Source of the DNA: a virus
Virus record (IMG/VR): IMGVR_UViG_3300010149_000010
Strand: one strand, 5' to 3'
Length of the DNA: 64,000 nt
In this document: one piece after another, positions 3,627-55,392 of the stretch
Position numbering within the stretch: position 1 is the first letter of the stretch
Layout of the letters: every line of letters begins with the position of its first letter
Translations under genes and position numbers: made by a program
The notes under the pieces: generated by a model
Seen by the model: the letters and a program-made list of their open reading frames with translations, nothing else
Told to the model about the DNA's origin: nothing
Databases searched by the model: none

Positions 3627-3794
3627 TTTTGATAGGGGTTGAAATCCCCCTTTAGCTGTATCAGGTCATATACCACTGATCTGTTAGTAAAATGCTTGGC
3701 ACGAGTAAGGGGTTCACGTCCCGCTAAGCGTCTAATGCAGACTTACTCAAAAAACAACCCTACCCCCATTATCAATTGCAAGAAAGGAAAAATC

Positions 3795-4211
3795 ATGCAA
3801 GAGATGCAAGACAAAACTCTCGTCGAGATCGTAAAGGCCTATAAGGGGGCCTTTATATATGCTCCAGGCGGCACAGTCAACATTGGCTGTGTTATGTTCG
3901 ATGGCCCCTCAAACGCGAAGAAGGCTGTTCCTAAAAAAGCAGGGTCAGCAGAAGCCGAGAAACCCAAGGCTGTTCGTCGTCGCAAGGCTACTACCAAAGT
4001 TGATGAGAAGGCTGAGCCACCTAAGGGTGATTCAGCTTCGCCTCCACCAGTTGACACTAATGACGGTGACGATAACGAAGGTGATGGTTCAGCGCCCGAC
4101 CCAGCAGCGGCCACGAGTTGGGGCTCTCGTGGTGCGGGGCCTGCTGACTCAGCGACACCCACCTCCCCATTTTCTCGCCCTCGTCGTCGGGAACCCAACA
4201 ACGGGGCTTGA
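3795..4211 (+). CDS. Hypothetical protein with a low-complexity basic/acidic/Pro-rich tail
   Basis: ATG at 3795 follows AAAGGA; codon style matches the upstream GC-rich gene. Confidence 0.5.
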   Translation: MQEMQDKTLVEIVKAYKGAFIYAPGGTVNIGCVMFDGPSNAKKAVPKKAGSAEAEKPKAVRRRKATTKVDEKAEPPKGDSASPPPVDTNDGDDNEGDGSAPDPAAATSWGSRGAGPADSATPTSPFSRPRRREPNNGA

Positions 4212-4365
4212 CCCCCGTCTTGGGTTTCTGCCCTCCCCTCTAACCGTTCCACCTTCACAATTCTATAGGCTTTATAACTAGCTATTATCCTGTAGTCTTA
4301 TCTTCAATAGCTCATTGCCCCGCCAGTTGACTCCTTCTACCTAGTTACTCCGCCAAGCAAGTTGA

Positions 4366-4421
4366 CTCCGCGCGCGGAGCCAGGGGCTGCAAGCAGCCCT
4401 GCGAGCAAGCTCGCTGCCTGG
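4366..4421. repeat. Cluster of short palindromes/hairpins (CTCCGCGCGCGGAG; GGGCTG-CAAG-CAGCCC; GCGAG-CAAG-CTCGC inside CCAGG/CCTGG)
   Basis: Inverted repeats read directly from the sequence; intergenic. Confidence 0.6.
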
Positions 4422-4509
4422 TGATCAAACAAGGTGATTATTAATCTTTTTTTTAATTTGCTCATGCAATTATTAAGAAGATTCAAACTTTGTTAAAGAA
4501 GGAGCCGAC

Positions 4510-4983
4510 ATGGCTAATCAAGAACTAAAACTTCACGACGACGCTTCCGAGCTTAGTCTGCCTGAGGCACGCCTAGCGCGCCTTAAGGTTCTCCGTGATA
4601 AAGTAGACGAAAAAGCCGCTTGGAGCGGGCGAGGCGATAAAAAGCCTGCCCGTTCCCTACTTGTAGTGGACGGTGCAGATGCGAGTCAAATCGCTTCGTA
4701 CCTGACCAGCAAGGGCCAATCATCTAGAGTGACCTTCGAGGTCACCGAGCATAAGTTACGCGGGATCTTTGACGATCATATCCGTGAGCTTGAGCGCGAG
4801 ATCGCAGAGGCGGAGAAGGCAGCAATGCCCGATCCGATGCAGGCCGTTCGAGAGATGCAAGCAGCAATGCAAGCACAGCAAGCCCAATTCATGCAAATGA
4901 TGGTGGGCATGATGAGTGGTAACACTTCTCCCGAGGCTCCTGCTCCTGCCGAGACTGCTCCTGAGGCTCCTGCTGAGTCGTGA
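4510..4983 (+). CDS. Hypothetical protein (coiled coil, M/Q-rich segment, PAET/PEA tail)
   Basis: AAGGAG RBS upstream of the ATG; 157 aa ORF. Confidence 0.75.
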   Translation: MANQELKLHDDASELSLPEARLARLKVLRDKVDEKAAWSGRGDKKPARSLLVVDGADASQIASYLTSKGQSSRVTFEVTEHKLRGIFDDHIRELEREIAEAEKAAMPDPMQAVREMQAAMQAQQAQFMQMMVGMMSGNTSPEAPAPAETAPEAPAES

Positions 4984-5371
4984 TTTTAAGTGAAAGCTGT
5001 TCTTCGGAGCAGTTAGTAGCAAACTCGTTAACCGAAAGGTGTGACGAGACGAGACGTAGTGTCTCAAGCCTAATTCCCCTTGGCGTAAAAATGGGGCGAA
5101 AAACTTTTCCTGTCGGAACGAAAGGATCTTCATCATGACCTACTGGGTTGATGAAAGAGGTGTTGTGCACTTCGAAAATCCACGAGCTCAATAAAAGCTT
5201 TATGGTCGCAGCTATGCGTAAATAGTGGGTAGCTATACCCTTGAAATAGCCGGAGCTATGATAGCTTCGTTAGTCAGAGAATGACAAACAATCTGATTTA
5301 GACTTTTATTATAAAAAAGTCGGCAGCCTTATTAACGGACGGACGTAATGTCGCCAGTTTCAATAATAAGC

Positions 5372-5474
5372 AGTGTCGTCGGAAGCCCTTAGGGGTGGAA
5401 GACCTGATGAGTCTAGTAGTTCATTCTGCTAGCATCGCTTTAATTAGTGATGTCCTTTAGGGGAACGAAACACT
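5372..5474 (+). ncRNA. Hammerhead ribozyme (type III topology), predicted cleavage after GUC at 5377
   Basis: Stem III AGTGT(5372-76)/ACACT(5470-74); cleavage residue C5377; stem I GTC/GAC capped by GCCC-TTAG-GGGT; core CTGATGA (5404-10); stem II G-C and T-A pairs carrying three sub-hairpins; CGAAA (5466-70). Confidence 0.8.
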
Positions 5475-6132
5475 TTTCTCATCAAGACAGCTAACGCTGG
5501 GCCCAGTGATTTTCTAAACACTTAAAAAAAAGAACATTAGAATTTTCAACGGAAGCCAGATGCGCCTTCGTAAAGAAAAGCATAGTGCTCGCTTAGACCT
5601 TCGGGTCTTACCTGCGGAAATGAATGATAAGTTCATGTTCTAAAGGATACCAATGAGAAATGGTAAGCGGGTTACTGGCACAAGGTCGCAACTTGTGTCG
5701 CTGGAGATAAAACCAGTACCCTTAGACAAGGGGTGTGCGCGGTTTGTAGAAAAAACAAACCCATATGCGCCTCATGTCAGCAGGTCAAAATACAGTGGCT
5801 ATTATCAGGCATGGTAAGTAAGTCAATAAAGAATTTCTCGGGGCTGTTCTCCCCACTTCAGTAATGTAGTACTTACTGTAATAATAGGGAACCAAGGGTC
5901 AGCCAAATAAGGCCCTGGCATGGAAGCTCCTTAGCGGGAGTGGGAAAATGCAAAACCAGCAAATCGATTAGCTAGCCTTAGCGGGCAAGTTACCGAAGAG
6001 CCGGGGATCTGTAATAGTGGTGTATTACAGACACAGTGCGAATTCCAAAAGGGGGAGCTGCCGTAGATATCTGCGGTAACGAACTTGATTAGGTGTTGCG
6101 TATTTGTGCCTTGTACGATTATATTGTGCAAG

Positions 6133-7870: not shown

Positions 7871-8077
7871 GTTGTGCGTAAAGCACCTATACTGATAGCA
7901 GAGGTTCTCAAAAAAAAGAATAATGCGCGCGATATTAAGCAACTGATTTGCTATTGCGTTCAGAAACTCTTTTTTCTCCTTTAGTAACAATAACTTAAAA
8001 GTTTGACAAGGCGAAACTTTTAAAGTTGTTATATAAAAGATTGACTTAATACACACATTCTCTAGAAAGAGCAAAAA

Positions 8078-8794
8078 ATGATGAAATTAATATCATCGAT
8101 AATTCTCACCCTTCAATCTTCCTTATCCTTCTTATTCAGTGGTGGTGAAGTAGCGATGAACTTAGCAGACAGCAATAAGCTATCAGTTGAGGCTAAAAAG
8201 TTCGTCGACGGCGGAACTCGCAGTTTAGGAACTTGTGCATTAGCTAACCACTTAGCCAATGCTGGGTTCAGCATGTTAAACGGCTTCCTCGTAGGTTCTT
8301 ACTGCGGATGGCAATGGGGACTGTTTACGACAGTCTTCTCTCTGCTTGGATTATGGTATCTTGGTGAGCTGTTACCAAAGATGACTGCAGCCAAAGCGCC
8401 AGAAAAGTTCTTAAACACTCATGCAAAAAAACTCCTCGCTGCAAAATCTCTACTATCTCCCATAGTGGACAGGATTGTGAAAGAAGAGCCAAGATGCGAA
8501 GTAAAAGAGAATGAGAAGGAATTAGTATCTGCCGCCCGTATGGCAGATGAAAAATGGAGCATCCTCTTACTACCTTTGTACGATGAACCAAAAGGAGGTA
8601 AAGCCCCATCTCTGATTCATAAAATTTCTTCATTGAGCTCCATAGAGGAGGTCATGTTGGCGGTGTGCTTGAAGAAAGAAGACAAAATAGTAGAATACCA
8701 AGTGATCGATGCCTACCACTTAAATGTAGTAGGATATTTCAACCCAATCACCATCATTCGTTGGATGATGGATCATAAAGAATTGAAAAAATGA
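8078..8794 (+). CDS. Hypothetical membrane protein
   Basis: 238 aa ORF with hydrophobic segments. Confidence 0.6.
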   Translation: MMKLISSIILTLQSSLSFLFSGGEVAMNLADSNKLSVEAKKFVDGGTRSLGTCALANHLANAGFSMLNGFLVGSYCGWQWGLFTTVFSLLGLWYLGELLPKMTAAKAPEKFLNTHAKKLLAAKSLLSPIVDRIVKEEPRCEVKENEKELVSAARMADEKWSILLLPLYDEPKGGKAPSLIHKISSLSSIEEVMLAVCLKKEDKIVEYQVIDAYHLNVVGYFNPITIIRWMMDHKELKK

Positions 8795-12065: not shown

Positions 12066-12133
12066 CGTAAACGTTTAAAAAGTTAATTCTTCTCTATTAA
12101 ACCAATGCAGAAACAATCAATGTAAAACGCTTT

Positions 12134-12207
12134 GGGCCTATAGCTCAGTTGGTTAGAGCACCCGACTCATAATCGGTAGGTCCCAGGTTCAAGTCCTGGT
12201 GGGCCCA
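12134..12207 (+). tRNA. tRNA with CAT anticodon, most like tRNA-Ile2 (lysidine type); no encoded CCA
   Basis: Cloverleaf with GGGCCTA/TGGGCCC acceptor, CCGA-CTCATAA-TCGG anticodon arm and GGTTCAAGTCC T-arm. Confidence 0.9.
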
Positions 12208-12217
12208 TAAAAATTTT

Positions 12218-12290
12218 GGACTTTTAGCTCAGTTGGTAGAGCATCGGACTTTTAATCCGCAGGTCCTGGGTTCGAACCCCAGAAGGTCCA
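12218..12290 (+). tRNA. tRNA-Lys(TTT); no encoded CCA
   Basis: GGACTTT/AAGGTCC acceptor; CGGA-CTTTTAA-TCCG anticodon arm; GGTTCGAACCC T-arm. Confidence 0.95.
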
Positions 12291-12314
12291 TTTAAAAAAG
12301 GAGAAAATAAAGAA

Positions 12315-18644: not shown

Positions 18645-18717
18645 GCACTAATAGCTCAGTTGGAAGAGCAGGGGCCTTCTAAGCCCAAGGTCGCAGGTTC
18701 GAGCCCTGCTTGGTGCA
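18645..18717 (+). tRNA. tRNA-Arg(TCT); no encoded CCA
   Basis: GCACTAA/TTGGTGC acceptor; GGGC-CTTCTAA-GCCC anticodon arm; GGTTCGAGCCC T-arm. Confidence 0.92.
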
Positions 18718-26375: not shown

Positions 26376-27158
26376 GTGTACTTTTATGAAAGATACACTT
26401 TGCTTAAAAAATTTCACTACGAAGATGGCCAACTTAAGTACCATCAAAAAATAAGAAAAAAAATATTTGAAGATTTAAATTTCCTGCCCACTAGCTTTTG
26501 GGACCTCAACCCAATAATTAGCGGCAGTTACGCAATCAATCTTCTCTTTAAACCACAATCCTTTTATGATGACGTAGACTTCTACTTTGAATTTCAAGAC
26601 CAATATGATGAAGCAAAAGCTATTCTTAATGGTTTTTCAGAAGAAGCTTCTTCTTTGAATTGTCAAACTTTTACAATTGGAAATAAAAAAATACAGCTTG
26701 TTAGTAAGTTTTTTAACTCTCCGCAAAACATAATATTTGCACATGATTTTAAGAATTCTTCAATAGCAATCACGAAAGACTGGATATATATAGACTCAGT
26801 AATATTTAAATTATACTATGAGTCTTTACTTTCAATTCGTTCTACTCAAATTGACCCTACAATGACAGAAGAAGCTACAGTCAAAAAAATTGCTTTGCTT
26901 TTTAACAGAATTCTAAAATACACAAGCCGCTACGATTTAACTTTGGATGATGAATCAATTCAAATTTTAAAATCTTTGCGAACCTATCTTACTAATACTC
27001 CAATTGAAACTACCAAAAGTATTTTGATAAATACAACCATTTACTACGACGGTAACCATTCTCCTTATCAAAATAATCTTAGAACTATTCTTGAAATAAA
27101 AGAACATTTAGACGCATTTTTGTTCCCCTATGATCAGCTGCCTACTCTTTGTTTTTAA
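26376..27158 (+). CDS. Pol-beta superfamily nucleotidyltransferase (CCA/poly(A) polymerase head-like)
   Basis: IISGSYA...DVDFYF signature, then IQLV...HDF and RILKY. Confidence 0.65.
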   Translation: MYFYERYTLLKKFHYEDGQLKYHQKIRKKIFEDLNFLPTSFWDLNPIISGSYAINLLFKPQSFYDDVDFYFEFQDQYDEAKAILNGFSEEASSLNCQTFTIGNKKIQLVSKFFNSPQNIIFAHDFKNSSIAITKDWIYIDSVIFKLYYESLLSIRSTQIDPTMTEEATVKKIALLFNRILKYTSRYDLTLDDESIQILKSLRTYLTNTPIETTKSILINTTIYYDGNHSPYQNNLRTILEIKEHLDAFLFPYDQLPTLCF

Positions 27159-27385
27159 GATATCATTCCTGCAAGGACTATATGAGAATTATCTGTTTAA
27201 ATACTCAAGATTGTGGCCACACAAGAAAACTTTCTCATCAAGAAATAAAAGAAATAAACGTAAATGCTCCTTTTTCTAACTGCGAACTTTGCGGTTATTA
27301 TGCACTTACTACTACCAATAATGTAACAGAAGATTTAAATTTAAGTAAAATTGCAACTATTTTGCAAAGCTTTAAAGAAAGATAA
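27149..27385 (+). CDS. Small Zn-ribbon protein
   Basis: C....CG ... C..CG. Confidence 0.5.
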   Translation: MFLRYHSCKDYMRIICLNTQDCGHTRKLSHQEIKEINVNAPFSNCELCGYYALTTTNNVTEDLNLSKIATILQSFKER

Positions 27386-27386
27386 A

Positions 27387-30233
27387 ATGAGATTTTATAA
27401 TTTTTTCACAAATATAAAAAACAGTCCTTGCAACGAAGATAAAAAAGAAATAGCTAGGATTAAACAAATGCTAATTCATGGAGAAGACCAGACATTTTAT
27501 TCTCCTGCTACAGAATTCAATAGAATCAGCCAGGATACTGTTAATTCTATTGAATTCATGAAACAATTAAACCCCACTGTTTTCCAAACCATTGAGAGTC
27601 AAACTTTACCCTTCTTAAGCTTTTTAAATCGAAAGCAAAGTGCTGCACACTATATAAGAAGCAACAATCCGCAAACAGCTTTTCTTAGAGAGCTGCAGGC
27701 TGCTGGAAATGTAAGGGATTTAGACGCTAAGATTTCTGTAATCTATAGTTTATTTACGCACATTACACACCGCTCTTGTTTTATTTCAGATTTTTTCAAA
27801 AGTAATTCTAGAGCTCCTAATAAAAACTTTTTATATTTGTTAAAAGTTTTTGAAAACACCCATAACCTTTCAAATCAATATCATCTCAATTTAGAAGCTC
27901 ATCAACACTTTTTAGAAAATGGTCATGTTTGCTGGGTCGACTCTTTGGAGCACTGCCAGTCTCTAAACGATACGGCTTCTTCAACCCCGATAAAAGAAAT
28001 AGCTAAAATTTACATTGCTTTTTTTGAGCATTTATTAAAAAAAAAAAATAATATTGAAGATAACAATCATCATTCGCTAGGCAGCCTGATCTGGAACACT
28101 CTTTATCAAACTGACAATAATCCCAATTTCCTTCATCTAACTTTTGAAAAGCCTACTGAGGTTTTATTGAATCTTACAGAAAAGCAAATCAAAGACAAAA
28201 TAGCTATGTTTTCGTCAATTGAAATTTTCAATTACCTCCAGATGAACTCACTCGAAAGTACAGATAACGAAAAGGTATACAGCCATTTTTCTAATCAATT
28301 TTTTACTAAATTTAAAGAAAACAGCGAAGATCCCAATCTTTCAAATGAAAACAATTTGATTAAAATCGATTCCAATCCTATTGACTTGCGATTCACCTCA
28401 TCTAACCTTAATGAAACCACTTGGACCTATTCCAACTTGTTTGCTCGCAATAATCAAGACACAATACAGTGCTTCCCCCCTAAAGGTGATGGAAGAAGTA
28501 ATTCTCAATACATACCTCTAGCAGGCACTACTGGTTTGTTAATTGATGACACATCAGGCAAATATGCAAGTCTTGATGTCGCTTCTTCTCTTCAAGCTAA
28601 TCCAAATAAACGTGTTTTTGGTTTAATGCTTAATGCTTTTACCAAAGCCACACTGAAGCCTTCTTTTGAATTCATCACTCTAACTAAAAAACAGGCTTTA
28701 ATCAGAAAAGGGTTTTTCATTCCAGTTCTATTAAAATTCCTATCTTGTAATGAAGAAGGGGCAATTGAAACAGCTTACAACTTTTCTTTAATGAATTATA
28801 GCGACAATCTTAGTTCTATTATTAAAAGAAAGAGAAGCAGAGACCAAATTATAGCCTTCTACAACGCTTACGGCGAAGATGGTTTAAGGTTAATAAACTA
28901 CCAAAAGTTCTTACTTGACCAAAAAAAAAAGATAAAAAAACTAGCCGAATATTCTTTCGCTAACGCTCCTACTTTTAGCAATTATAGTTCTGTTGAAATC
29001 AACCAACTACTCTCATGCTTGAATTCAATCAAGAACAGTCACTCAAAAAAAGCTAGCCAATCTTTAGTAACTTTTAGCGATAAGCTAACCGCTAAATTAA
29101 ATCTCGAACCTTCAATAACTAAAAAGTACAACAAAGTAAGCTCCAATTACAAAAAACTTGTATCGCAAAACACTGAAGAAAGAGGTCTTGTCTCTGATTT
29201 TGCTCGCAACATAGAGCAAGGAAATATGAATATTGAAGGGCTAACCAGAACCATTCAAGAGAATCAAAACAGAATGAAGGAAATGAAAAAACAACTCTCT
29301 GAAAGCACATTACATTTGAAAACTAGCTTTAATAAAAGAGTTGACCTTATTGAAACAATATGCGCAAACAAATCATTATACTTGAAAGTTTTAAAAGATT
29401 ACAATAAAGCTACTGAAATAGCTTTAAGCCAACAAGACTACTCTCAAAACGATTTTTTTAAAAACATTTATGAAACTGAATCTGTAAAAATACTTTCAAT
29501 AGCTAGTTCTAAACAAATCATCGATTGCACAAATTCTGAGAATTACCTTGACGACTTAGCTACAAAAATTGCAGGCAAGAAGGAAAACTTTTTAATTAAA
29601 GAAGTAATTTTCCTTATAGACGCGCCTGTAAAGATAAATGTTGATGGCGGGCGCAAAGGACAAATTGTAGGTGGCCCTTATCTCGTTGCTGTCAAAAAAG
29701 ACGAACTTAAAATCAAGCTCGCCTACCCAAGCTCTATTCACGGCTATTCTGACGAATCTAAAAAAATTTACATCCACCCTCATTCAGGTTCATGTCAAGC
29801 TTTAAGTCTTATCAATTATTTTCAACAATTAGAAAGTCATGAACCTGACCATTACTGGTCAAGAGCTTGTCTTGGCGAAGCCTCTTCTTTGATCTATCGC
29901 GCTTTTGAAAAAGAAAATGACCTTAAATTAATCTTAATTTCAGCGTTAACTTGGGTTAAAAACGCAAACAGCGCTGACACTTGGGGTAAAAATTATAAGT
30001 ATTTCCCTAAATACTCTCAGATCCAAGAGGAGTTGTCAACTCCTCTCTTAAATCAACAAGAAATCACTGAAGAAGACGTAGGCGATTTCATTGAAGAGAT
30101 GATCGTTTCTGAAGAAGAAAACCTCCAAGAAGAGCCCAACCAACAACAACCACTTCAACAAGAACAAGAAAATGTAACAGAAGCTCATACTGAACCTGTC
30201 TCGCAGGTTTACGTACCGTATACACAAAGGTAA
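27387..30233 (+). CDS. Large protein with a central coiled coil and a C-terminal prokaryotic E2 (ubiquitin-conjugating)-like domain
   Basis: C-terminal IYIHPHSG...RACLGE...L.WV..AN..D.WG fits the HP[HN]...CL signature of the E2 fold; directly upstream of JAB and E1 genes. Confidence 0.6.
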   Translation: MRFYNFFTNIKNSPCNEDKKEIARIKQMLIHGEDQTFYSPATEFNRISQDTVNSIEFMKQLNPTVFQTIESQTLPFLSFLNRKQSAAHYIRSNNPQTAFLRELQAAGNVRDLDAKISVIYSLFTHITHRSCFISDFFKSNSRAPNKNFLYLLKVFENTHNLSNQYHLNLEAHQHFLENGHVCWVDSLEHCQSLNDTASSTPIKEIAKIYIAFFEHLLKKKNNIEDNNHHSLGSLIWNTLYQTDNNPNFLHLTFEKPTEVLLNLTEKQIKDKIAMFSSIEIFNYLQMNSLESTDNEKVYSHFSNQFFTKFKENSEDPNLSNENNLIKIDSNPIDLRFTSSNLNETTWTYSNLFARNNQDTIQCFPPKGDGRSNSQYIPLAGTTGLLIDDTSGKYASLDVASSLQANPNKRVFGLMLNAFTKATLKPSFEFITLTKKQALIRKGFFIPVLLKFLSCNEEGAIETAYNFSLMNYSDNLSSIIKRKRSRDQIIAFYNAYGEDGLRLINYQKFLLDQKKKIKKLAEYSFANAPTFSNYSSVEINQLLSCLNSIKNSHSKKASQSLVTFSDKLTAKLNLEPSITKKYNKVSSNYKKLVSQNTEERGLVSDFARNIEQGNMNIEGLTRTIQENQNRMKEMKKQLSESTLHLKTSFNKRVDLIETICANKSLYLKVLKDYNKATEIALSQQDYSQNDFFKNIYETESVKILSIASSKQIIDCTNSENYLDDLATKIAGKKENFLIKEVIFLIDAPVKINVDGGRKGQIVGGPYLVAVKKDELKIKLAYPSSIHGYSDESKKIYIHPHSGSCQALSLINYFQQLESHEPDHYWSRACLGEASSLIYRAFEKENDLKLILISALTWVKNANSADTWGKNYKYFPKYSQIQEELSTPLLNQQEITEEDVGDFIEEMIVSEEENLQEEPNQQQPLQQEQENVTEAHTEPVSQVYVPYTQR

Positions 30234-30236
30234 AAA

Positions 30237-31346
30237 ATGAAATCAGTAACTTCCCACAATATATTAAATAACATCCCTATTATTTCTATAACCCACAAAG
30301 GGCTAGAAGCTATTAAAGAGATTGTTAGAATCGCTCCCCAAGAAGCGCAATGGTTTCATACTGTTGAACCAGTTATTTATAAACAATCTCCTAATGAAAT
30401 CCACCTACACCTTTCGGAAAAGATATACATACCTACTCAAAATACTTCTGCTGCTCAAGTCGACACTACTTCGTCAATGATGATGGATTTTTATCGTGAG
30501 CTTAAGAAAGATTATGAAGACCAGGAAACTGTTAACAGTAAATTATCTGCAATGACTTGTTGGTGTCATAGTCACCACAATATGTCACCTAATCCAAGTA
30601 ATCAGGATGATTTACAGTTTAACTCCTTCATTACTTTAGCAGAAGACCAGGGTACAAAAGCTTGGCAGGTCATGCTTATTTTTAATAAGAAAGATCAATT
30701 TTACAGTCGAGTTTACGATCCTACCACAGACACAGTACACGAAGGTGTTCCAATCCGCGTAGTTCGCGACTATGACTTTTCTTATATTCATCAAGCTGCA
30801 AGAACCAAGTTTATCAAACCCAAGCCAAAGATGAAAAAAAAGAATGCTTCAGGATGGAATCTTGGAAGATTTACATCGTCAAAAAGTTTCGAAAGCTCTT
30901 TTTTTGCAAATTCCAAAGATGATAAAGTCCTTTCAAATGATCTTAACGAAGAAATTGTAATCGGAGTTTTAAATGATATTTTCGATAACTACAATGTTTA
31001 CATGCCGCCTACTCAACAATTTACCAAAACCATAAGCCTTCATTCTAGTAACTTACAAAAGCTCCAAGAAGCTCTTTACGCAACTTTTGATGAGAGAGAA
31101 ATAGCATTCTTTACCTTTTTCATTACAGGTAAGCAGAAACAAATTCCTAGCTTTTTTTCAGATTCCGCTTTTACCAAAAAGTTCCCTACAATAGATAAAT
31201 GCCTCACCTTTTTTAAAGAGACTTTAAAGAATAATACTTTTTCTATTCAAGACATGTACGAAGCCTTAACATCTACTTTAGAAATAGTAGACCTAGAAAC
31301 CAGAAAACAATGCAAGGACTATATTGACAATGACGGAATCATTTAA
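30237..31346 (+). CDS. JAB/MPN+ (JAMM) metalloprotease
   Basis: Upstream E (PQEAQW), IPTQ, and WCHSHHNMSPNPSNQDD = HxHx7SxxD. Confidence 0.85.
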   Translation: MKSVTSHNILNNIPIISITHKGLEAIKEIVRIAPQEAQWFHTVEPVIYKQSPNEIHLHLSEKIYIPTQNTSAAQVDTTSSMMMDFYRELKKDYEDQETVNSKLSAMTCWCHSHHNMSPNPSNQDDLQFNSFITLAEDQGTKAWQVMLIFNKKDQFYSRVYDPTTDTVHEGVPIRVVRDYDFSYIHQAARTKFIKPKPKMKKKNASGWNLGRFTSSKSFESSFFANSKDDKVLSNDLNEEIVIGVLNDIFDNYNVYMPPTQQFTKTISLHSSNLQKLQEALYATFDEREIAFFTFFITGKQKQIPSFFSDSAFTKKFPTIDKCLTFFKETLKNNTFSIQDMYEALTSTLEIVDLETRKQCKDYIDNDGII

Positions 31347-32064
31347 CGCAACTAATGTATCTTTTTTACGACATGGTGCTTTTTTTGGACCAGAAGACTC
31401 TCAAGATAAAGTTTTAAATATCATTGGAGTTGGTGCTACTGGCAGTTGGGTTGGACTTTTAGCTGCTAAAATGGGTTGGCAACATTTTCGTGTTTGGGAC
31501 GCTGATATAGTCGAATCTCACAACTTGCCTAATCAAATTTACGATTTAGAACAAGTTGGCTTACCTAAAGTAACCGCTTTTAAACAAAAACTACTTCAGT
31601 TCAATCCAGAGGTAGTAGTCGAAACAAATAATAAGTTCTTTCTTTCTGAACAAGACAAAGACAACCTTGAAGATTATGTTTTTGTTGCAGTCGATTCTCT
31701 TTCAGCAAGAAAAGATATTATCGAAGGGGTCCGCTCTCACCTTCTCCTTGACTACGTCATTGAAACAAGGATGGGTTTCGAACATGCAGAAATCAATATT
31801 ATCGATCCAGCCTACTCTGCACAGATTGACTCTTATTTAAGCACCTTAAAAACAGATGAAGAAGTGACTGAAAGCGCTTGTGATGCACGTATTATTACGA
31901 CTTTAACTTGCATCGTTTCCTCTTCTGTTGTACACACTTTGTGTGGTTTAGCTGCTCAAGACAGGCATGGAGAAACTTACACTCCTCAACCTAAACAAAT
32001 ATTCTCTTTACCCTCCAACATCAACACTACTTTATCTACATTTACAATAGGGTCAAAAACATGA
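31324..32064 (+). CDS. E1-like ThiF/MoeB-family activating enzyme
   Basis: IIGVGATGS, WDADIVESHNLPNQ, K, VDS..AR, ETRMG; candidate catalytic Cys in TESACD; no CxxC Zn sites. Confidence 0.9.
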   Translation: MTMTESFNATNVSFLRHGAFFGPEDSQDKVLNIIGVGATGSWVGLLAAKMGWQHFRVWDADIVESHNLPNQIYDLEQVGLPKVTAFKQKLLQFNPEVVVETNNKFFLSEQDKDNLEDYVFVAVDSLSARKDIIEGVRSHLLLDYVIETRMGFEHAEINIIDPAYSAQIDSYLSTLKTDEEVTESACDARIITTLTCIVSSSVVHTLCGLAAQDRHGETYTPQPKQIFSLPSNINTTLSTFTIGSKT

Positions 32065-32246
32065 CAAAACAAAAAATTAATGAAATTATTACAAATCTAA
32101 CTGATGCTCTAACCGATGCTGAGAAATTTGACTCTGGCAATGATGCTGCTGGACGTCGGATTAGAAATGCAGCCCAAACAGCAAAAGCCGATCTGCAAGA
32201 ACTTCGAAAGCTAGTTCAAGAAGAAAGAAATTCTCGAAAAGCTTAA
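32061..32246 (+). CDS. Small helical protein resembling bacterial histone H1-like Hc1 family members
   Basis: DAEKFDSGNDAAGRRIR...LQELRK pattern. Confidence 0.55.
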   Translation: MTKQKINEIITNLTDALTDAEKFDSGNDAAGRRIRNAAQTAKADLQELRKLVQEERNSRKA

Positions 32247-32296: not shown

Positions 32297-32317
32297 GGGG
32301 GCTTTGCCCCCTTTTTT
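32297..32317 (+). terminator. Rho-independent terminator-like hairpin just before the di-Ubl gene
   Basis: GGGGGC-TTT-GCCCCC-TTTTTT. Confidence 0.6.
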
Positions 32318-32336: not shown

Positions 32337-32783
32337 ATGACTAACATCACACTTATTGTAATTCCTGGATCTGGCGCTCGCCAAACTTCTTTAAACTCTA
32401 GCGCTACTGTTTCAGATCTTGCCTGCCAAGAGAACCTACACGGCCGCGATATTATCATTGACGGTGTGGGTGTCCCTGCAGATCAATGGGCAACCACACC
32501 AGTTCCTAACGGAGCAGAAGTCTTTGCTACCGGTAGCGTCAAGGGTAATAATTCATCTTTTACTTTGATCGTTATTCCTGGATCTGGCGCTCGCCAAATT
32601 TCAATGGCTGGCTCAACTTCAACCCTTACAGTTGCAGCTCTGGTTTGCCAAGAAAACTTACATGGCCGCGATATTATTGTTGATGGCCGTGGTGTACCCC
32701 CTGCTGAGTGGGAAACTACAACCATTTCTTCCGGAAATGAAGTCTTCGCCACTGGTAGCGTTAAGGGCAATAATGGTATCTGA
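32337..32783 (+). CDS. Tandem di-ubiquitin-like (beta-grasp) precursor, 148 aa
   Basis: Two units of 70 and 74 aa (TLIVIPGSGARQ...QENLHGRDII..G...EVFATGSVKG), each followed by N; final tail NNGI; adjacent to E1 and JAB. Confidence 0.75.
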   Translation: MTNITLIVIPGSGARQTSLNSSATVSDLACQENLHGRDIIIDGVGVPADQWATTPVPNGAEVFATGSVKGNNSSFTLIVIPGSGARQISMAGSTSTLTVAALVCQENLHGRDIIVDGRGVPPAEWETTTISSGNEVFATGSVKGNNGI

Positions 32784-33057
32784 TTTAAAATATTCTATCT
32801 CTTCTGGTGACGGCGCTAAACAAGCGTTTTTAAATCTCCTCGAACAAGAAGCAGCTTGGCAAGACAATTATCAAATTCAAGGCTTTTTTGCCCCTTATAA
32901 AAGGTATAAAATTGTTTCTCTTGATGAGTTTCCTTCTAAAGAAGAGGCGGTTTCTTTTATTAATTCAAATAGACCATTTAAGTTGCGTCCAAAAACACTA
33001 GGTTGCGTTTTTATAAAAAATGACACCAACACTAAATATCTGTTTTTTATTCAATAG
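32773..33057 (+). CDS. Hypothetical protein, paralogue of 33071..33376
   Basis: Shared S...A.QAF.NL ... GC ... K[YF]LFF pattern. Confidence 0.55.
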   Translation: MVSDLKYSISSGDGAKQAFLNLLEQEAAWQDNYQIQGFFAPYKRYKIVSLDEFPSKEEAVSFINSNRPFKLRPKTLGCVFIKNDTNTKYLFFIQ

Positions 33058-33070
33058 TATAAGGAAACCT

Positions 33071-33376
33071 ATGGGCTCTTCTACTTTTTATTTATCTACT
33101 TCAGCAGAAAATGCTTCTCAAGCTTTCAGCAACTTAGTCTTTGAAGCAAAACACGACTACGGATCTGCCGGTTATACCGGCACTATAGCTGAAAAAGAGT
33201 ATTATACTATGGCTTCTTCAGAGCCACTAGAAATTTCTGCAGCCGACTCTTTAGCCGCAAATTTATTAAACACTCGTTATTCAGACAAATACGGCCCTGC
33301 TGGCTGTATAGAATTAAAAAAAGAACATTCTGCCCAACTCAAAAAGTTTTTATTTTTTGGTTGGGCCGCTGAATAA
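33071..33376 (+). CDS. Hypothetical protein, paralogue of 32773..33057
   Basis: AAGGA RBS; A.QAF.NL, GC.., KFLFFGW. Confidence 0.65.
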   Translation: MGSSTFYLSTSAENASQAFSNLVFEAKHDYGSAGYTGTIAEKEYYTMASSEPLEISAADSLAANLLNTRYSDKYGPAGCIELKKEHSAQLKKFLFFGWAAE

Positions 33377-33432
33377 CAATTCACTTTATCTAAAAACAAC
33401 TACTTACTCTCCCTTTACTCGAAAGAGAAAAA

Positions 33433-33696
33433 ATGACCAACATTACACTCATTGTTATCCCCGGATCTGGCGCTCGCCAAGTCACCCTTTCATCTGATGC
33501 GACCGTTGCCAATTTGATTTCACAAGAAAATTTACATGGCCGAGATATCATCATTAATGGCGCAGGCGTTCCTGCAGCAACCTACTCTGATACTACTGTG
33601 CCTCACAATGCAGAAGTTTTTGCTACTGGCAGTGTTAAAGGTAATGGCAGCTCCCTAAGAAATGCTCCAAGCGAAACCTCGCCTGGAAGTAAGTAA
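33433..33696 (+). CDS. Ubiquitin-like (beta-grasp) protein, 70 aa plus a 17 aa C-terminal extension
   Basis: Third copy of the same unit, ending EVFATGSVKG then NGSSLRNAPSETSPGSK. Confidence 0.75.
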   Translation: MTNITLIVIPGSGARQVTLSSDATVANLISQENLHGRDIIINGAGVPAATYSDTTVPHNAEVFATGSVKGNGSSLRNAPSETSPGSK

Positions 33697-51978: not shown

Positions 51979-54900
51979 ATGGCTACAAGAAGAACAGATA
52001 ATCGAAAAGGGTCTCTAGATCCATCAGTAGTTAATAATATAAAAGAAAAAGTACTGTTAGAAGTTCAACAAGGTATTATTGGACCAGCTGGACCTCAGGG
52101 TCCTCAGGGGCCTCAGGGTAGTGATGGTGCCGCAGGAAGTCCCGGAGAAAGCGTTAACTTTTCTACTACTTCTACATCTATGCATTCCAATGATTCAAAT
52201 GGCACTTTAACCGTTACTAGTGGGTTGTCATATGTTGGCGGAGAATATATTTCAATTGCCCCATCAACAGATTTAACCAAGGTGCAAATAGCAACCGTCA
52301 CTAGTTATTCGACGGATCAACTATCATTTTCTCATGTATCTAACAATGCTAGCGAATTATATTACGATTCTTGGGTAATTAATTTAAGCTCAGCTCCAGG
52401 CGTTCAAGGTCTTACTGGGATTCAAGGTCTTCAAGGGGATGTTGGAGCCACTGGCCCTCAAGGTCCCATCGGTTTGACTGGCCCTCAAGGGCCAACAGGC
52501 TTAACTGGAGCTCAAGGTCCCGCCGGAGTTGATGGACCTCAAGGCCCCCAAGGAAATCCTGGGCAAACAGGAGCCCAAGGTGTTCAAGGGAACCCTGGAG
52601 CGACTGGCCCTCAAGGTCCTGCCGGAGCAGACGGCGCTGACGGAATCCAAGGGTTAAAAGGGGATACCGGTGATGCCGGTTCGCAAGGTGTAGCTGGTAG
52701 CTCTGCATACCAAACCTGGATTCTTGCTGGAAATACTGGCAACGAACAAGATTTTTTAGATAGTTTAATAGGCGCAACTGGAAGCGCTGGTGTTCAAGGC
52801 CCTGCAGGTCCAGAGGGAGTTGCAGGTACTGATGGAGTTGATGGGAGCCAAGGAATACAGGGGCCTCAAGGGATCCAAGGCCCACAAGGGGTTGCCGGTT
52901 TAGGTATTAACCTCAAGGGCAATGAAAGTACTTTCAGTAGTTTAACCCAATATGAAAGTAGCGCAGCATCTGGAGACGCTTACACTATTACTGATGAGAA
53001 CTACACCTTATATGTATGGAACTCTTCCACTAGTACTTGGGTAGATGGTGGTTCTATCCAAGGCCCTGCGGGCCCTGCAGGCGTTGCAGGACCTAGTGGG
53101 GCAGATGGGGCAGATGGATCGACCGGCCCAAAAGGAGACGATGGTGATCAAGGGTTGCAGGGTCTTGCAGGAGTAAATGGTCAAAATGGTTCTGATGGCT
53201 CTTCAGCTTATCAAATATGGATCTCTAATGGAAATTCTGGTACTGAAGCCCAATTCTTAGAATCACTTATTGGTCAAGACGGTCAGGATGGTCAAGATGG
53301 CGCTCTTGGTGCAACCGGTCCGCAAGGAGTTTCTGGAGATACGGGCCCACAAGGAATTCAAGGCCCACAGGGGCTACAGGGAACAGAAGGTCCCGCCGGA
53401 CCTCAAGGTGCTCAAGGAGACGCTGGCCCTACAGGGGCGGCTGGTTCAAACGGTTCAGACGGTGTTGCGGGCCCTACCGGACCTCAAGGTGCTGCCGGCG
53501 CTGCCGGTGCGGCTGGACCTCAAGGTGATGTCGGTCAACAAGGCCCTACAGGGCTAACCGGGCCGCAAGGCGAAACTGGACCACAAGGTGAACAAGGAAT
53601 TCAAGGTCAACAAGGAGCAGCTGGCTCGGTTGGTTCTCAAGGACCCGCAGGCACAGGGATTACCTTTAAAGGTTCCGTAGCTGATGTAAATGCGCTAAGC
53701 ATTATTTCATCTCCCACTCAAGGAGATGCTTATCTTGTTGAATCTAATGATTCCCTCCACATACATGATGGGAGCGTTTTTGTCTCTGGAGGATCCATAC
53801 AAGGCCCTCAAGGCGTAAAAGGCGATACTGGCGATCAAGGAATTCAAGGAATTCAAGGCGTTGCTGGACAAACAGGCTCTCAAGGCGCAGCTGGACCTGC
53901 TGGTTCTGACGGCATTGATGGTTCTGACGGAATTCAAGGCGCCCAAGGCATTAAGGGCGACACTGGAGACCAAGGTTCAACCGGCCCTCAGGGTGCAGCA
54001 GGAAGTACTGGTCCTCAAGGAGAGCAAGGTCCAATTGGCCAAACTGGTCAACAAGGCATTCAAGGTGTTCAAGGTGAAACAGGGGATCAAGGTCTTCAAG
54101 GTCCAGCTGGACCTCAAGGCGAAACTGGTTCGCAAGGAATACAAGGAGCAACTGGCCCACAGGGTGTTGCCGGCCCTACCGGACCTAAAGGCGACACTGG
54201 AGACACTGGTATCCAGGGCCCAACTGGAGCTGCTGGAGCAGATGCAGTTAACAGCGTTATTGCTAGTTCATTAAGCACAAACGCTAGTTTCATCTCTTCT
54301 GTTTCTTCAGATTCAACTTTAGCAACTAATGTTGCTTCTGAATTAGGCACCTCCTCTGCAATTACTGGATTGCAAACCCAAATTACAGCAAATGATGGAG
54401 ACATCACTAGCAACTTAGCGGCAATTCAGAGTAATGATACTGACATCGCAGGTCTTGGTACCAGGATGACAGCGGCTGAAGGTGATATAGATGACCTAGA
54501 GTCTGATGTGGCTACTAATACATCGAGTATCAGTACCAACGCCAGTTCAATCAGCACTAATGCTAGTAACATCTCGACCAATACGAGCAACATCAGTGCG
54601 AATGACTCTGATATAGCCTCTAACTTGGCCGCCATCCAAAGTAATGATACTGACATTGCAGGTCTTACGACTCGTATAAGTTCTGCTGAAAGCAACATCA
54701 GTTCAAACGATACGGATATATCAAATCTCGGTACCAGGATGACTGCTGCTGAGAGCGACATTGATGATCTTGAAACAGATGTAGCCTCCAATACTAGCAG
54801 TATCGGATCTCACACAACGAGCATTAACAGCCTTACCTCTACTCAGTCTTCTCACGCTTCAACGCTCACGAGTCTACAGAGTCAGATTACAGGTAATGAT

Positions 54901-55392
54901 GGTGACATCAGCACGAATACTTCTGGTATATCCTCCAATGCGAGCAACATCAGTTCGAATGATACTGATATCACAGCTCTTCAAGCATTATCCCACACGC
55001 ATGAAACCGCAATTGGACTTAATAGTAATGGCACTTACACTGTTATAGCTGATGCTAACTATGCTGATGGAACCAATTTAAAAACTGCAGTCACTCAACT
55101 TGATACACAAGCCAAAAACAATGCTGACAACATTGACCTCCTAGAAGTAAGAGACGGTGGACTATTTGAGCAGCAAGATCATGGTTCTAGTGTTTATTCT
55201 GTCATCATGCCTTCAACCATAAAAATTAGCTCACATCTCGGTCCGTTCGAAATTGACATGGCCGATATTATAACCAATAGTGGCGCAGGTGACATCATTT
55301 TTTACGGCTGCAAAGCCAAGACACACGAAGACGCCCATTTCGAAGTAGATACCACTAATGGTGATTCAATCTTTACAGGATATCGAAACTAA
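51979..55392 (+). CDS. Collagen triple-helix fibre protein with a C-terminal trimeric coiled coil (tail fibre/spike)
   Basis: Long Gly-X-Y runs; duplicated SSAYQ.W...GN.G.E..FL.SL and KG...GDAY...GGSIQGP modules; NDTDI/NTSSI heptads. Confidence 0.85.
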   Translation: MATRRTDNRKGSLDPSVVNNIKEKVLLEVQQGIIGPAGPQGPQGPQGSDGAAGSPGESVNFSTTSTSMHSNDSNGTLTVTSGLSYVGGEYISIAPSTDLTKVQIATVTSYSTDQLSFSHVSNNASELYYDSWVINLSSAPGVQGLTGIQGLQGDVGATGPQGPIGLTGPQGPTGLTGAQGPAGVDGPQGPQGNPGQTGAQGVQGNPGATGPQGPAGADGADGIQGLKGDTGDAGSQGVAGSSAYQTWILAGNTGNEQDFLDSLIGATGSAGVQGPAGPEGVAGTDGVDGSQGIQGPQGIQGPQGVAGLGINLKGNESTFSSLTQYESSAASGDAYTITDENYTLYVWNSSTSTWVDGGSIQGPAGPAGVAGPSGADGADGSTGPKGDDGDQGLQGLAGVNGQNGSDGSSAYQIWISNGNSGTEAQFLESLIGQDGQDGQDGALGATGPQGVSGDTGPQGIQGPQGLQGTEGPAGPQGAQGDAGPTGAAGSNGSDGVAGPTGPQGAAGAAGAAGPQGDVGQQGPTGLTGPQGETGPQGEQGIQGQQGAAGSVGSQGPAGTGITFKGSVADVNALSIISSPTQGDAYLVESNDSLHIHDGSVFVSGGSIQGPQGVKGDTGDQGIQGIQGVAGQTGSQGAAGPAGSDGIDGSDGIQGAQGIKGDTGDQGSTGPQGAAGSTGPQGEQGPIGQTGQQGIQGVQGETGDQGLQGPAGPQGETGSQGIQGATGPQGVAGPTGPKGDTGDTGIQGPTGAAGADAVNSVIASSLSTNASFISSVSSDSTLATNVASELGTSSAITGLQTQITANDGDITSNLAAIQSNDTDIAGLGTRMTAAEGDIDDLESDVATNTSSISTNASSISTNASNISTNTSNISANDSDIASNLAAIQSNDTDIAGLTTRISSAESNISSNDTDISNLGTRMTAAESDIDDLETDVASNTSSIGSHTTSINSLTSTQSSHASTLTSLQSQITGNDGDISTNTSGISSNASNISSNDTDITALQALSHTHETAIGLNSNGTYTVIADANYADGTNLKTAVTQLDTQAKNNADNIDLLEVRDGGLFEQQDHGSSVYSVIMPSTIKISSHLGPFEIDMADIITNSGAGDIIFYGCKAKTHEDAHFEVDTTNGDSIFTGYRN

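Follow-up and report, generated by a model that had tools for sequence, protein, structure and literature searches.

The window, i.e., the complete stretch of 64,000 nt of viral DNA which was analysed (IMG/VR record IMGVR_UViG_3300010149_000010), carries two genes for ubiquitin-like (Ubl) proteins, di-Ubl and Ubl3. Four genes precede them, which encode a large protein ending in an E2-like domain, a JAB peptidase, an E1-like enzyme and a small basic protein (Table 1). Coordinates and sequences of both Ubl genes are as the sequence-only reading had described them.

Table 1. Features of the Ubl cassette (nucleotide positions in the window)
Feature	Position	Strand	Description
Large protein	27351..30233	+	960 aa; last ~200 structured residues (~nt 29451-30050) form an E2/UBC-like domain
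JAB/JAMM metallopeptidase	30237..31346	+	369 aa; JAB domain in first ~195 aa, C-terminal half variable
Minimal E1-like adenylating enzyme	31324..32064	+	246 aa, single ThiF domain; start overlaps JAB gene by 23 nt
Hc1-like (histone H1-like) small basic protein	32061..32246	+	Pfam PF07432, 3e-13; between E1 and Ubl genes
GC hairpin followed by T run	32297..32311	+	terminator-like; between enzyme genes and Ubl genes
di-Ubl ORF	32337-32783	+	148 aa; two units head to tail
Ubl unit 1	32337..32549	+	aa 1-71 of di-Ubl; C-terminal motif EVFATGSVKGN, then NSSF...
Ubl unit 2	32550..32783	+	aa 72-145 of di-Ubl (nt 32550-32771); EVFATGSVKGN, then 3-residue tail NGI and stop
X1, divergent copy of domain X	32773..33057	+	94 aa; ATG overlaps end of di-Ubl gene, +1 frame
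X2, domain X	33071..33376	+	101 aa; ends FFGWAAE
Ubl3	33433..33696	+	87 aa; one unit, aa 1-71 (nt 33433-33645), and 16-aa tail starting GSSL

The Ubl genes adjoin an intact JAMM peptidase and a ThiF-type E1, as had been read from the letters. In the JAB protein E36, H111, H113, S121 and D124 are invariant in 11 loci and together constitute the full JAMM motif, E...HxHx7Sx2D. Matches to JAB families are weak (Pfam Prok-JAB, E 0.008; PADLOC JAB, E ~0.01), and a comparison of the JAB profile with PDB sequences retrieved no related chain at all. The E1 matches Pfam ThiF at 5e-21. Invariant across the 11 loci are GxGxxG, D124 and a single Cys186 in ESAC(N/D)xRIITTLT; in most loci the enzyme is 229-246 aa long and consists of one ThiF domain that includes the Cys in line. 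Its PDB matches are all weak and confined to the N-terminal, nucleotide-binding half: PaaA, 9EGB, TcdA, UBA5, MoeB, Cap2, MccB and BubCD. The best of these, PaaA, is an enzyme which does not act on Ubls. PHROGs yielded unnamed E1 families only.

The large protein varies between 727 and 1115 aa across loci. Towards its end comes the E2-like domain, in which a long insert separates HPH from the Cys; an acidic tail follows, and YVPY is the conserved terminus. The motifs HPH, C-L-G-E and ANSxDxWG are invariant in the alignment of 11 loci and are kept in the distant locus L016. An AF2 model of the region (pLDDT 75) was used in a wide search with VIA-align; about 35 of the top 50 matches are E2, UEV or RWD chains with low Z-scores of 3.3-5.6, and BilB (8tyz_C) and the E2 domain of Cap2 are in these top 50. 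Foldseek and an Atlas shape search with the same model returned nothing significant and no named fold, and the sequence profile found no related chain at all in the PDB. The putative E2 assignment is based on motifs and on low Z-scores (at most 5.6).

The cassette is syntenic across 11 distinct phage loci. Its members are the large E2-like-ended protein, the JAB, the minimal ThiF-type E1, the Hc1-like protein, 2-5 Ubl units and often a domain X. The Hc1-like gene occupies the same position in all close loci (10/10) and is absent from the distant locus L016. Probably, the phage encodes a ubiquitin-like conjugation system of which the Ubl genes supply the modifiers, made as precursors. A role in virion assembly without conjugation, after the pattern of lambda tail assembly protein I and its JAB partner K, is highly improbable. 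The pairing of a Ubl with a JAB was described for lambda I/K (Iyer 2006), and there too a phage-encoded beta-grasp protein possesses a conserved C-terminal Gly. Further, the two-unit protein matches Pfam Lambda_tail_I (PF06805) with E 9.6e-5, yet its 23.2 bits are below the cut-off of 23.8, and a single unit is weaker still (14.1 bits). The cassette is surrounded by genes of replication and nucleotide metabolism (PhoH, Whirly, SpoVG, RNR) and lies outside any tail module; it has no NlpC/P60 domain, which accompanies the JAB in protein K, and it possesses multi-unit arrays, an E2-like protein and an E1, which lambda lacks.

The AF2 model of di-Ubl (pLDDT 80) consists of two domains, each with the order beta-beta-alpha-beta-beta-beta of a beta-grasp. 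Strand beta5 corresponds to EVFAT; it is followed by a flexible 6-residue tail containing GSVKG. A structure search with this model gave 59 PDB matches at E <= 0.001. The top matches listed are mainly ISG15, linear di-ubiquitin, polyubiquitin and FAT10; ISG15 and linear di-ubiquitin are the best, and these two and polyubiquitin match at E 8e-6 and below. Judged by the model, the units are real beta-grasp Ubls. When the Ubl alignment profile was compared with PDB sequences, no related chain emerged, solely two chance matches to dehydrogenases/reductases.

The three units of the window share on average ~77% DNA identity (mean column identity), and a stretch, GGATCTGGCGCTCGCCAA, is identical in all of them. 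The di-Ubl and Ubl3 genes have a common 5' context, A(A/G)AGA(A/G)AAAAAATGAC(T/C)AACAT(C/T)ACACT(T/C)ATTGT. Both observations bear out the duplication which the sequence-only reading had proposed. In each of the three units the only Lys is that of VKG, next to the terminal Gly. This peculiarity extends to the relatives: a second Lys is present in merely 14 of 335 units, compared with 7.1% Lys in the ORFs of the window. Clearly, Lys is strongly avoided in the Ubl units.

All three units of the window terminate in EVFATGSVKG followed by Asn, and the KGN is present in 338/338 units, internal ones included, from 226 distinct homologous proteins. Thus, the claim of a uniform KG-N junction holds far outside the window. 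The same applies to the claim that no unit has a free C-terminal Gly, which is correct in the window and in every relative: KG is the C-terminal end in 0/226 close proteins, 58 of the 226 end exactly at the Asn, and the majority carry further residues after it. The 16-aa tail of Ubl3 is a degenerate version of a Gly/Arg-rich tail found in this family. Across 335 units the C-terminal 11 residues show little or no variation. The codons of this motif vary synonymously, i.e., Ser is encoded by AGY and by TCN, Asn by AAT (26 times) and AAC (8 times), which demonstrates that the conservation reflects selection on the protein and not recent gene conversion. The conservation of KGN is far beyond chance.

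The comparison extends to a distant set of ~99 clusters. Again none ends at KG, whereas in 77 exactly one more residue precedes the stop. This cap is an Ala in 53 of the clusters and an Asn in 41; KGG is the end of one distant protein. The Ala-capped form sits in a homologous cassette with the JAMM motif, the E1 Cys and HPH...CPGE. The replacement of Asn by Ala in a homologous cassette indicates that Asn chemistry is not required. For this reason Asn-specific reactions were rated low, i.e., intein- or capsid-like Asn cyclisation, Lys-Asn isopeptide bonds and an MccB-type succinimide. A modification of the C-terminal Asn of the MccA/MccB type disagrees with the Ala in 53 distant clusters, with the residues that follow the Asn in most proteins and with an E1 lacking the extra N-terminal domain. 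An N-x-S/T sequon at the junction was rejected because its presence is inconsistent. The alignments to Pfam ThiS and Lambda_tail_I were dropped as a means to equate the Asn with the last Gly of GG; the matches end 8-9 residues short and extrapolations conflict between units.

Which bond would be cut? The best reading, and a reasonably probable one, is that the JAB trims the precursors at G|N. BilC cuts BilA at Gly97|Ala98, i.e., in front of a one-residue Ala cap, and the JAB domain of BubCD cuts the BubAB fusion after G229. These trimming reactions are the direct experimental analogue and support a cut at G|N. On the other hand, the Asn is as strongly conserved as the Gly, and 58/226 proteins end there; the mature end thus could be the Asn. 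Accordingly formulated, the last residue of the 71-aa unit (Asn, or Ala in the distant relatives) would be the reactive end, the JAB would cut N|X, proteins ending in Asn would need no trimming, and the E1 would adenylate Asn or Ala, in the extreme by an MccB-like chemistry on a C-terminal Asn. We regard this as unlikely. The duplicating unit comprises 71 aa with the Asn included, and the exact stops in the close and distant sets are at the cap residue and never at the Gly. The residue after the Asn is of 17 kinds in the close set, as expected for the prime side of a deubiquitinase-type site. L, F, R or K follow the Asn in 1/112 internal junctions versus 31/168 terminal tails. This rarity is a hint of a cut at N|X; it is equally well explained by constraints which the structure of the following unit imposes, and the sequences are non-independent. 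ThiF-family enzymes can act on ends other than Gly: MccB and PaaA are among the PDB matches of the E1, and Cap2 accepts Ala. An activated C-terminal Asn, however, tends to cyclise, and this is difficult to reconcile with a thioester relay such as the conserved Cys residues of the E1 and of the E2-like domain imply. Across the superfamily Asn and Ala replace each other, the E1 with 246 aa in all has no N-terminal peptide-clamp domain as in MccB, and BilA, the nearest tested protein with a one-residue Ala end, is cut before the Ala. The sequences as such are compatible with G|N and with N|X as the scissile bond.

The arrays pose a second question. Di-, tri- and tetra-unit proteins exist, and 112/112 internal junctions carry the full motif. 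The number of units is 2-5 per phage and 1 to 4 per gene and changes freely between close relatives; in a tree the units cluster mostly by phage lineage and not by array position. The three distinct modifiers of the sequence-only reading thus are not supported as a conserved set. Conceivably, the arrays stay whole as multi-domain modifiers of which only the last end is trimmed and conjugated, as in ISG15, FAT10 or the two- and three-domain Ubls of Bil and Bub. Bacterial Ubls with 1-3 beta-grasp domains which remain intact are indeed known (PMC11601603). ISG15 and FAT10 are among the best structural matches, and the units of one array differ in sequence. Nevertheless, we consider whole arrays quite unlikely. 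All internal units retain the 11-residue C-terminal motif under purifying selection, whereas the internal domains of ISG15 and FAT10 are not known to possess a reactive tail. Moreover, single-unit genes with the same motif adjoin arrays in the same phages, and the shifting number of units also argues against a fixed multi-domain modifier.

Finally, a sulfur carrier of the ThiS/MoaD type, or an E1-only system like SAMP/TtuB, must be weighed. In this case the JAB would act like QbsD or Mec+ and uncover the Gly, and the E1 would generate a thiocarboxylate for thio-modification of tRNA, DNA or a cofactor. QbsE/QbsD and CysO/Mec+ likewise comprise a small beta-grasp protein, an adenylating enzyme of MoeB/ThiF size, and a JAB, which there clips off whatever follows the reactive Gly; sulfur carriers trimmed by a JAB have been described (Iyer 2006). 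The Ubl has sub-threshold ThiS matches (Pfam, E 0.016; TIGR01683, E 3.7e-4), JGI automatic annotation uses the name 'ThiS', and the best NCBIfam matches of the E1 are ThiF models. None of the ThiS and ThiF scores reaches its curated cut-off, however; the Ubl has 16.2 bits versus 22.5 (Pfam ThiS) and 20.8 versus 37.45 (TIGR01683). The C-terminal end is G-N and not GG, and the Pfam-annotated genes of the loci include no rhodanese, cysteine desulfurase or thiolation enzyme. The E2-like partner with its conserved Cys, the avoidance of Lys, the arrays and the cargo fusions, features which set the cassette apart from ThiS/MoaD carriers, all fit conjugation better. A sulfur carrier thus is very unlikely.

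The beta-grasp fold, the motifs, their conservation, the synteny and purifying selection are established. A conjugation pathway with trimming at G|N might operate as follows. The tags would first be synthesised in inactive form, as one of three precursor types: individual units with an Asn cap or with Asn and a short tail, arrays of 2-4 units, and arrays fused to domain X. The JAB would cut after the invariant Gly of ...GSVKG|N; each beta-grasp unit of ~70 residues would then end in a free Gly, and any tail or X domain would be detached. The minimal ThiF-type E1 would adenylate the Gly and load the unit on Cys186, from where it would move to the conserved Cys of the E2-like domain that terminates the 960-aa protein. 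Target choice may fall to the long N-terminal portion of this protein, and the unit would be joined to a Lys of a phage or host protein. Being almost devoid of Lys, the units themselves would be protected from chain formation and self-modification, and the array layout would yield several tags per translation event.

How far does the comparison with polyubiquitin carry? As claimed earlier, the arrays contain complete units in one frame, each with its full tail; in this respect they are polyubiquitin-style precursors. The analogy fails in that the units differ in protein sequence. As in yeast UBI4 and human UBB/UBC, beta-grasp units are arranged head to tail without a spacer domain, each with a reactive tail, and a short cap follows the last unit; in yeast UBI4 the cap residue is also an Asn. 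The phage versions fused to domain X, an unrelated small protein, resemble ubiquitin-ribosomal protein fusions. The di-Ubl model matches linear di-ubiquitin and polyubiquitin structurally; a sequence relation is undetectable. The phage tail has a single Gly (VKG), ubiquitin has LRGG. Within one array the phage units are ~55-65% identical and clearly diverged in the tree, whereas eukaryotic polyubiquitin units are identical. Further, the cap residue is invariant in the phage clade, the putative processing enzyme is the adjoining JAMM peptidase and the system is phage-encoded.

Comparable in composition are Bil (BilABCD) and Bub. These likewise comprise a Ubl, an E1, an E2 or E2-like protein and a JAB peptidase; the Ubl as translated extends beyond the Gly, which the JAB there exposes by trimming, and Ubls with 1-3 beta-grasp domains exist. 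There are differences as well. Bil and, probably, Bub are anti-phage systems of the host, while the present cassette is carried by phages. Their E1s have an IAD-AAD-CYS architecture, the phage E1 is a single adenylation domain; unlike in Bil and Bub, the E2-like domain ends a very large protein and has a long HPH-Cys insert, and every unit bears a reactive tail. Comparisons with the solved Bil and Bub proteins gave no significant sequence match, except that the E1 matches over the nucleotide-binding half.

To date, bacterial Ubl conjugation has been portrayed as a weapon of the host against phages (CBASS type II, Bil, probably Bub). The literature searched contains no account of a phage-borne E1/E2-like/JAB set with its own tags, and the tag is absent from all records of isolated phages. 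In DNA and protein searches 50,697 deposited phage records contained no match to the cassette DNA or to the Ubl; for the E1 there were only distant ThiF genes with ~26-32% identity, e.g., in crAss-like, Flavobacterium, Xanthomonas and Erwinia phages. The chances are about even that a widespread clade of large aquatic phages possesses a full Ubl pathway of its own, with an E1, an E2-like domain on a giant adaptor, a JAB and 2-5 Lys-free tags. The tags would come from true polyubiquitin-style arrays and tag-cargo fusions, an architecture that would have arisen independently of eukaryotes, and would modify host or phage proteins, e.g., the Hc1-like protein of the cassette or host defence proteins. 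Should the arrays be processed to monomers, the gene layout of polyubiquitin is no eukaryotic invention. It then would be a solution for the fast production of many tags which was reached at least twice. With a cap that is a fixed single residue, Asn or Ala, the family also poses a clean question concerning the specificity of JAMM peptidases. A small E1 and a Lys-free tag of 70 residues could serve as a compact orthogonal tagging system.

Domain X occurs both as a separate protein and as a fusion partner. The ESM Atlas model of X2 has a pTM of 0.79 and is without a named structural neighbour. A domain of the X2 type directly follows KGN in the proteins P0056, P0076, P0227 and P0229 and in the four-unit protein of L011. 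X1 has its own ATG with AAGGG five bases upstream, and a programmed frameshift from di-Ubl into X1 need not be invoked. When X1 is aligned to the naturally fused Ubl-X proteins, its Met falls on the Asn of KGN.

All three ubiquitin-like (Ubl) units of the window, two fused and one encoded by a separate gene, end with EVFATGSVKG followed by Asn. The single Lys of each unit is the residue preceding Gly. The GGATCTGGCGCTCGCCAA stretch is identical in all three, and the ribosome-binding region and first codons of both genes are nearly base-identical. The fused and separate units, these ends, the lone Lys and the common gene starts had been described correctly throughout in the sequence-only reading.

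Features of the Ubl cassette and of other regions of the window
Feature	Position	Strand	Remarks
tRNA genes	12133-12291 and 18645-18717		three genes
Gene upstream of cassette	26376-27158		260 aa
Hc1-like gene	32061-32246		chlamydial-type histone H1-like (Hc1) domain
Hairpin	32297-32311		terminator-like, perfect 6-bp GC stem and T run
di-Ubl ORF	32337-32783	+	148 aa; similar units aa 1-71 and aa 72-145
X1	32773-33057		family ending ...FFGWA
X2	33071-33376		family ending ...FFGWA
Ubl3 ORF	33433-33696	+	third unit and 16-aa tail
Ubl3 tail	33646-33693		degenerate copy of a Gly/Arg-rich tail
Collagen-repeat protein	51979-55392		1137 aa

An AlphaFold2 model (38-sequence alignment, mean pLDDT 80) shows two beta-grasp domains in which EVFAT forms strand beta5, followed by a flexible tail. 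Foldseek returned 59 PDB matches at E <= 0.001, with ISG15, linear di-ubiquitin, polyubiquitin and FAT10 at the top. In sequence, the Ubl family stands alone. Matches to Pfam ThiS, SAMP2 and Lambda_tail_I and to NCBIfam ThiS were all below cut-offs, and a unit profile run against solved chains matched no related chain.

When 5.8 billion proteins were searched with a word index, the di-unit protein had 184 relatives and a single unit 259. The 226 distinct sequences returned carry one (123 proteins), two (94) or three units (9); four-unit forms come from the related loci. Asn follows KG in 338 of 338 units, and none of the 226 proteins ends at Gly. The C-terminus is exactly at Asn in 58 and one to four residues further on in 106, and 17 kinds of residue occur directly after Asn. 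The eleven C-terminal residues, E-[VI]-F-A-T-G-S-V-K-G-N, vary little or not at all across 335 units, just 14 of which possess a second Lys, compared with 7.1% Lys in the window ORFs. In 34 units read as DNA, synonymous changes occur at every codon of this motif: Ser is encoded from both of its codon families, and Asn by AAT as well as AAC. The motif, internal junctions included, has therefore been kept by selection at the protein level and not by recent copying.

Where would such a precursor be cut? A cut before Asn (G|N) and one after it (N|X) are both compatible with the sequence taken alone: within the clade of the window Asn is no less fixed than Gly and is often the final residue. The evidence that tips the balance comes from a profile run exhaustively against 1.84 billion representatives. 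About 99 more distant single-unit clusters have KG-Ala (53), KG-Asn (41) or KG-Gly (1); in 77 the exact C-terminus is one residue past KG, and none stops at KG. P0236, a KG-Ala protein, sits in a homologous cassette with a large protein bearing HPH...CPGE...DSWG, a JAB metallopeptidase with full motif and an E1 with the same Cys, followed by PhoH, Whirly and SpoVG. The residue after KG is thus a small and interchangeable one, and chemistry requiring Asn is unlikely. BilC, a JAB peptidase, cuts BilA at Gly97/Ala98, exposing the reactive Gly, and BubCD uses its JAB domain to cut the BubAB fusion after Gly229 (PMC10557695, PMC11601596). As in BilA, where JAB removes a single Ala cap, the phage proteins have Gly plus one capping residue. 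The interchangeable cap and these precedents make cleavage between Gly and Asn, as proposed in the sequence-only reading, the favoured prediction, and a reasonably probable one. A reactive end formed by Asn or Ala itself is much less probable, though still a live alternative.

Some bacterial Ubls comprise two or three beta-grasp domains and remain intact (PMC11601603; Iyer et al. 2006), and the phage arrays might likewise act uncut, as multi-domain tags. In contrast to the bacterial proteins, however, a complete reactive tail is kept under selection in every internal unit, single-unit genes with the same tail adjoin the arrays, and unit number differs between close relatives. For these reasons uncut tags are not favoured, and cutting of the arrays into monomers is the preferred prediction. 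In a maximum-likelihood tree of 34 units these cluster mostly by phage lineage, orthologous pairs being only local, which indicates that arrays grow and shrink repeatedly. The proposal of three distinct modifiers, taken as a conserved set, is unsupported by this tree. P0313, a distant, Lys-rich four-unit array with KKIKGN at the end of every unit, shows that arrays have more than one origin.

What follows KGN differs. X1 and X2 are paralogous small genes of a domain family, X, which in other phages directly follows KGN in one-, two-, three- and four-unit proteins. The Met of free-standing X aligns with the Asn of these fusions, and the start codon (ATG) of X1 falls, in the +1 frame, within the end of the di-Ubl gene. 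Taken together, this looks like fission of an ancestral tag-cargo fusion. Domain X has a confident Atlas model, for which no structural neighbour with a name was found. Many relatives (e.g., P0083, P0107, P0114) instead carry a conserved Gly/Arg/Pro-rich basic tail after KGN (RPANGPS.TGRPSGGGRGNN.PR.K), which may be released as a peptide or serve as an extension that binds nucleic acid. P0240, a predicted protein of 212 aa from the phage species of the related locus L001, consists of an unrelated N-terminus of ~160 aa, capsid-protein-like by eye, and the 52 C-terminal residues of the mono-Ubl; this chimera may be an artefact of assembly or gene calling.

The Ubl genes terminate a cassette which is syntenic in 11 distinct loci (contigs up to ~160 kb): a Gad2-like gene, a ~70-aa ORF, a large protein (727-1115 aa), JAB, E1, an Hc1-like small basic protein, one to three Ubl genes (2-5 units in total), often the ~100-aa domain X, then PhoH, Whirly, SpoVG and ribonucleotide reductase. 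JAB has the complete JAMM signature (E36, H111, H113, S121, D124). E1 consists of one ThiF domain (Pfam 5e-21) with GxGxxG, a Mg-binding Asp and a single invariant Cys186; its likeness to known enzymes is confined to the nucleotide-binding half, and it falls short of the cut-off in every ThiF/MoeB/Cap2 model.

Invariant GGPY, HPH, C-L-G-E and ANSxDxWG motifs mark the final ~200 structured residues of the large protein. Their order, GPY...HP(N/H)...C-L-(D/G)...helix...N-x-x-D, corresponds to that of the UBC core, apart from a 20-28-residue insert preceding Cys. Exhaustive structural comparison of an AF2 model (pLDDT 75) placed E2/UEV/RWD chains, Cap2 E2 domain and BilB among them, at ~35 of the top 50, with Z of only 3.3-5.6; Foldseek and Atlas searches found nothing named. 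E2-like is a likely, though still putative, assignment for this domain. In L016, a distant locus, the large protein (3447-5783) ends in a WGR domain where that of the window clade has an acidic tail with a YVPY motif. L015 (contig from the L001 sample) encodes a 71-aa mono-Ubl ending KGN (8001-8216); E1, JAB and large protein were undetected within 8 kb either side.

The strong hairpin between the Hc1-like and di-Ubl genes divides enzyme genes from Ubl genes and suggests that they are transcribed or regulated separately. The Hc1-like gene is part of the cassette in every close relative but missing from L016, and its product is a possible substrate or partner. Homologues of the 260-aa upstream gene in related loci have a precomputed Pfam Gad2 (anti-Gabija) label; a Pfam search of the window's own protein gave no match. 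From the position among early/replication genes, the Gad2-like neighbour and the Hc1-like protein we conjecture that the system modifies nucleoid or defence proteins of the host or the phage. No description of a phage-borne system of this kind was found in the literature searched, and the tag was not found in isolated phage records.

Elsewhere in the window, a DnaE polymerase gene is split, and between its parts lies the gene of a protein with ten matched collagen triple-helix repeat stretches (Pfam Collagen, 3.6e-74). The tRNA genes are Met-CAT, Lys-TTT and Arg-TCT.
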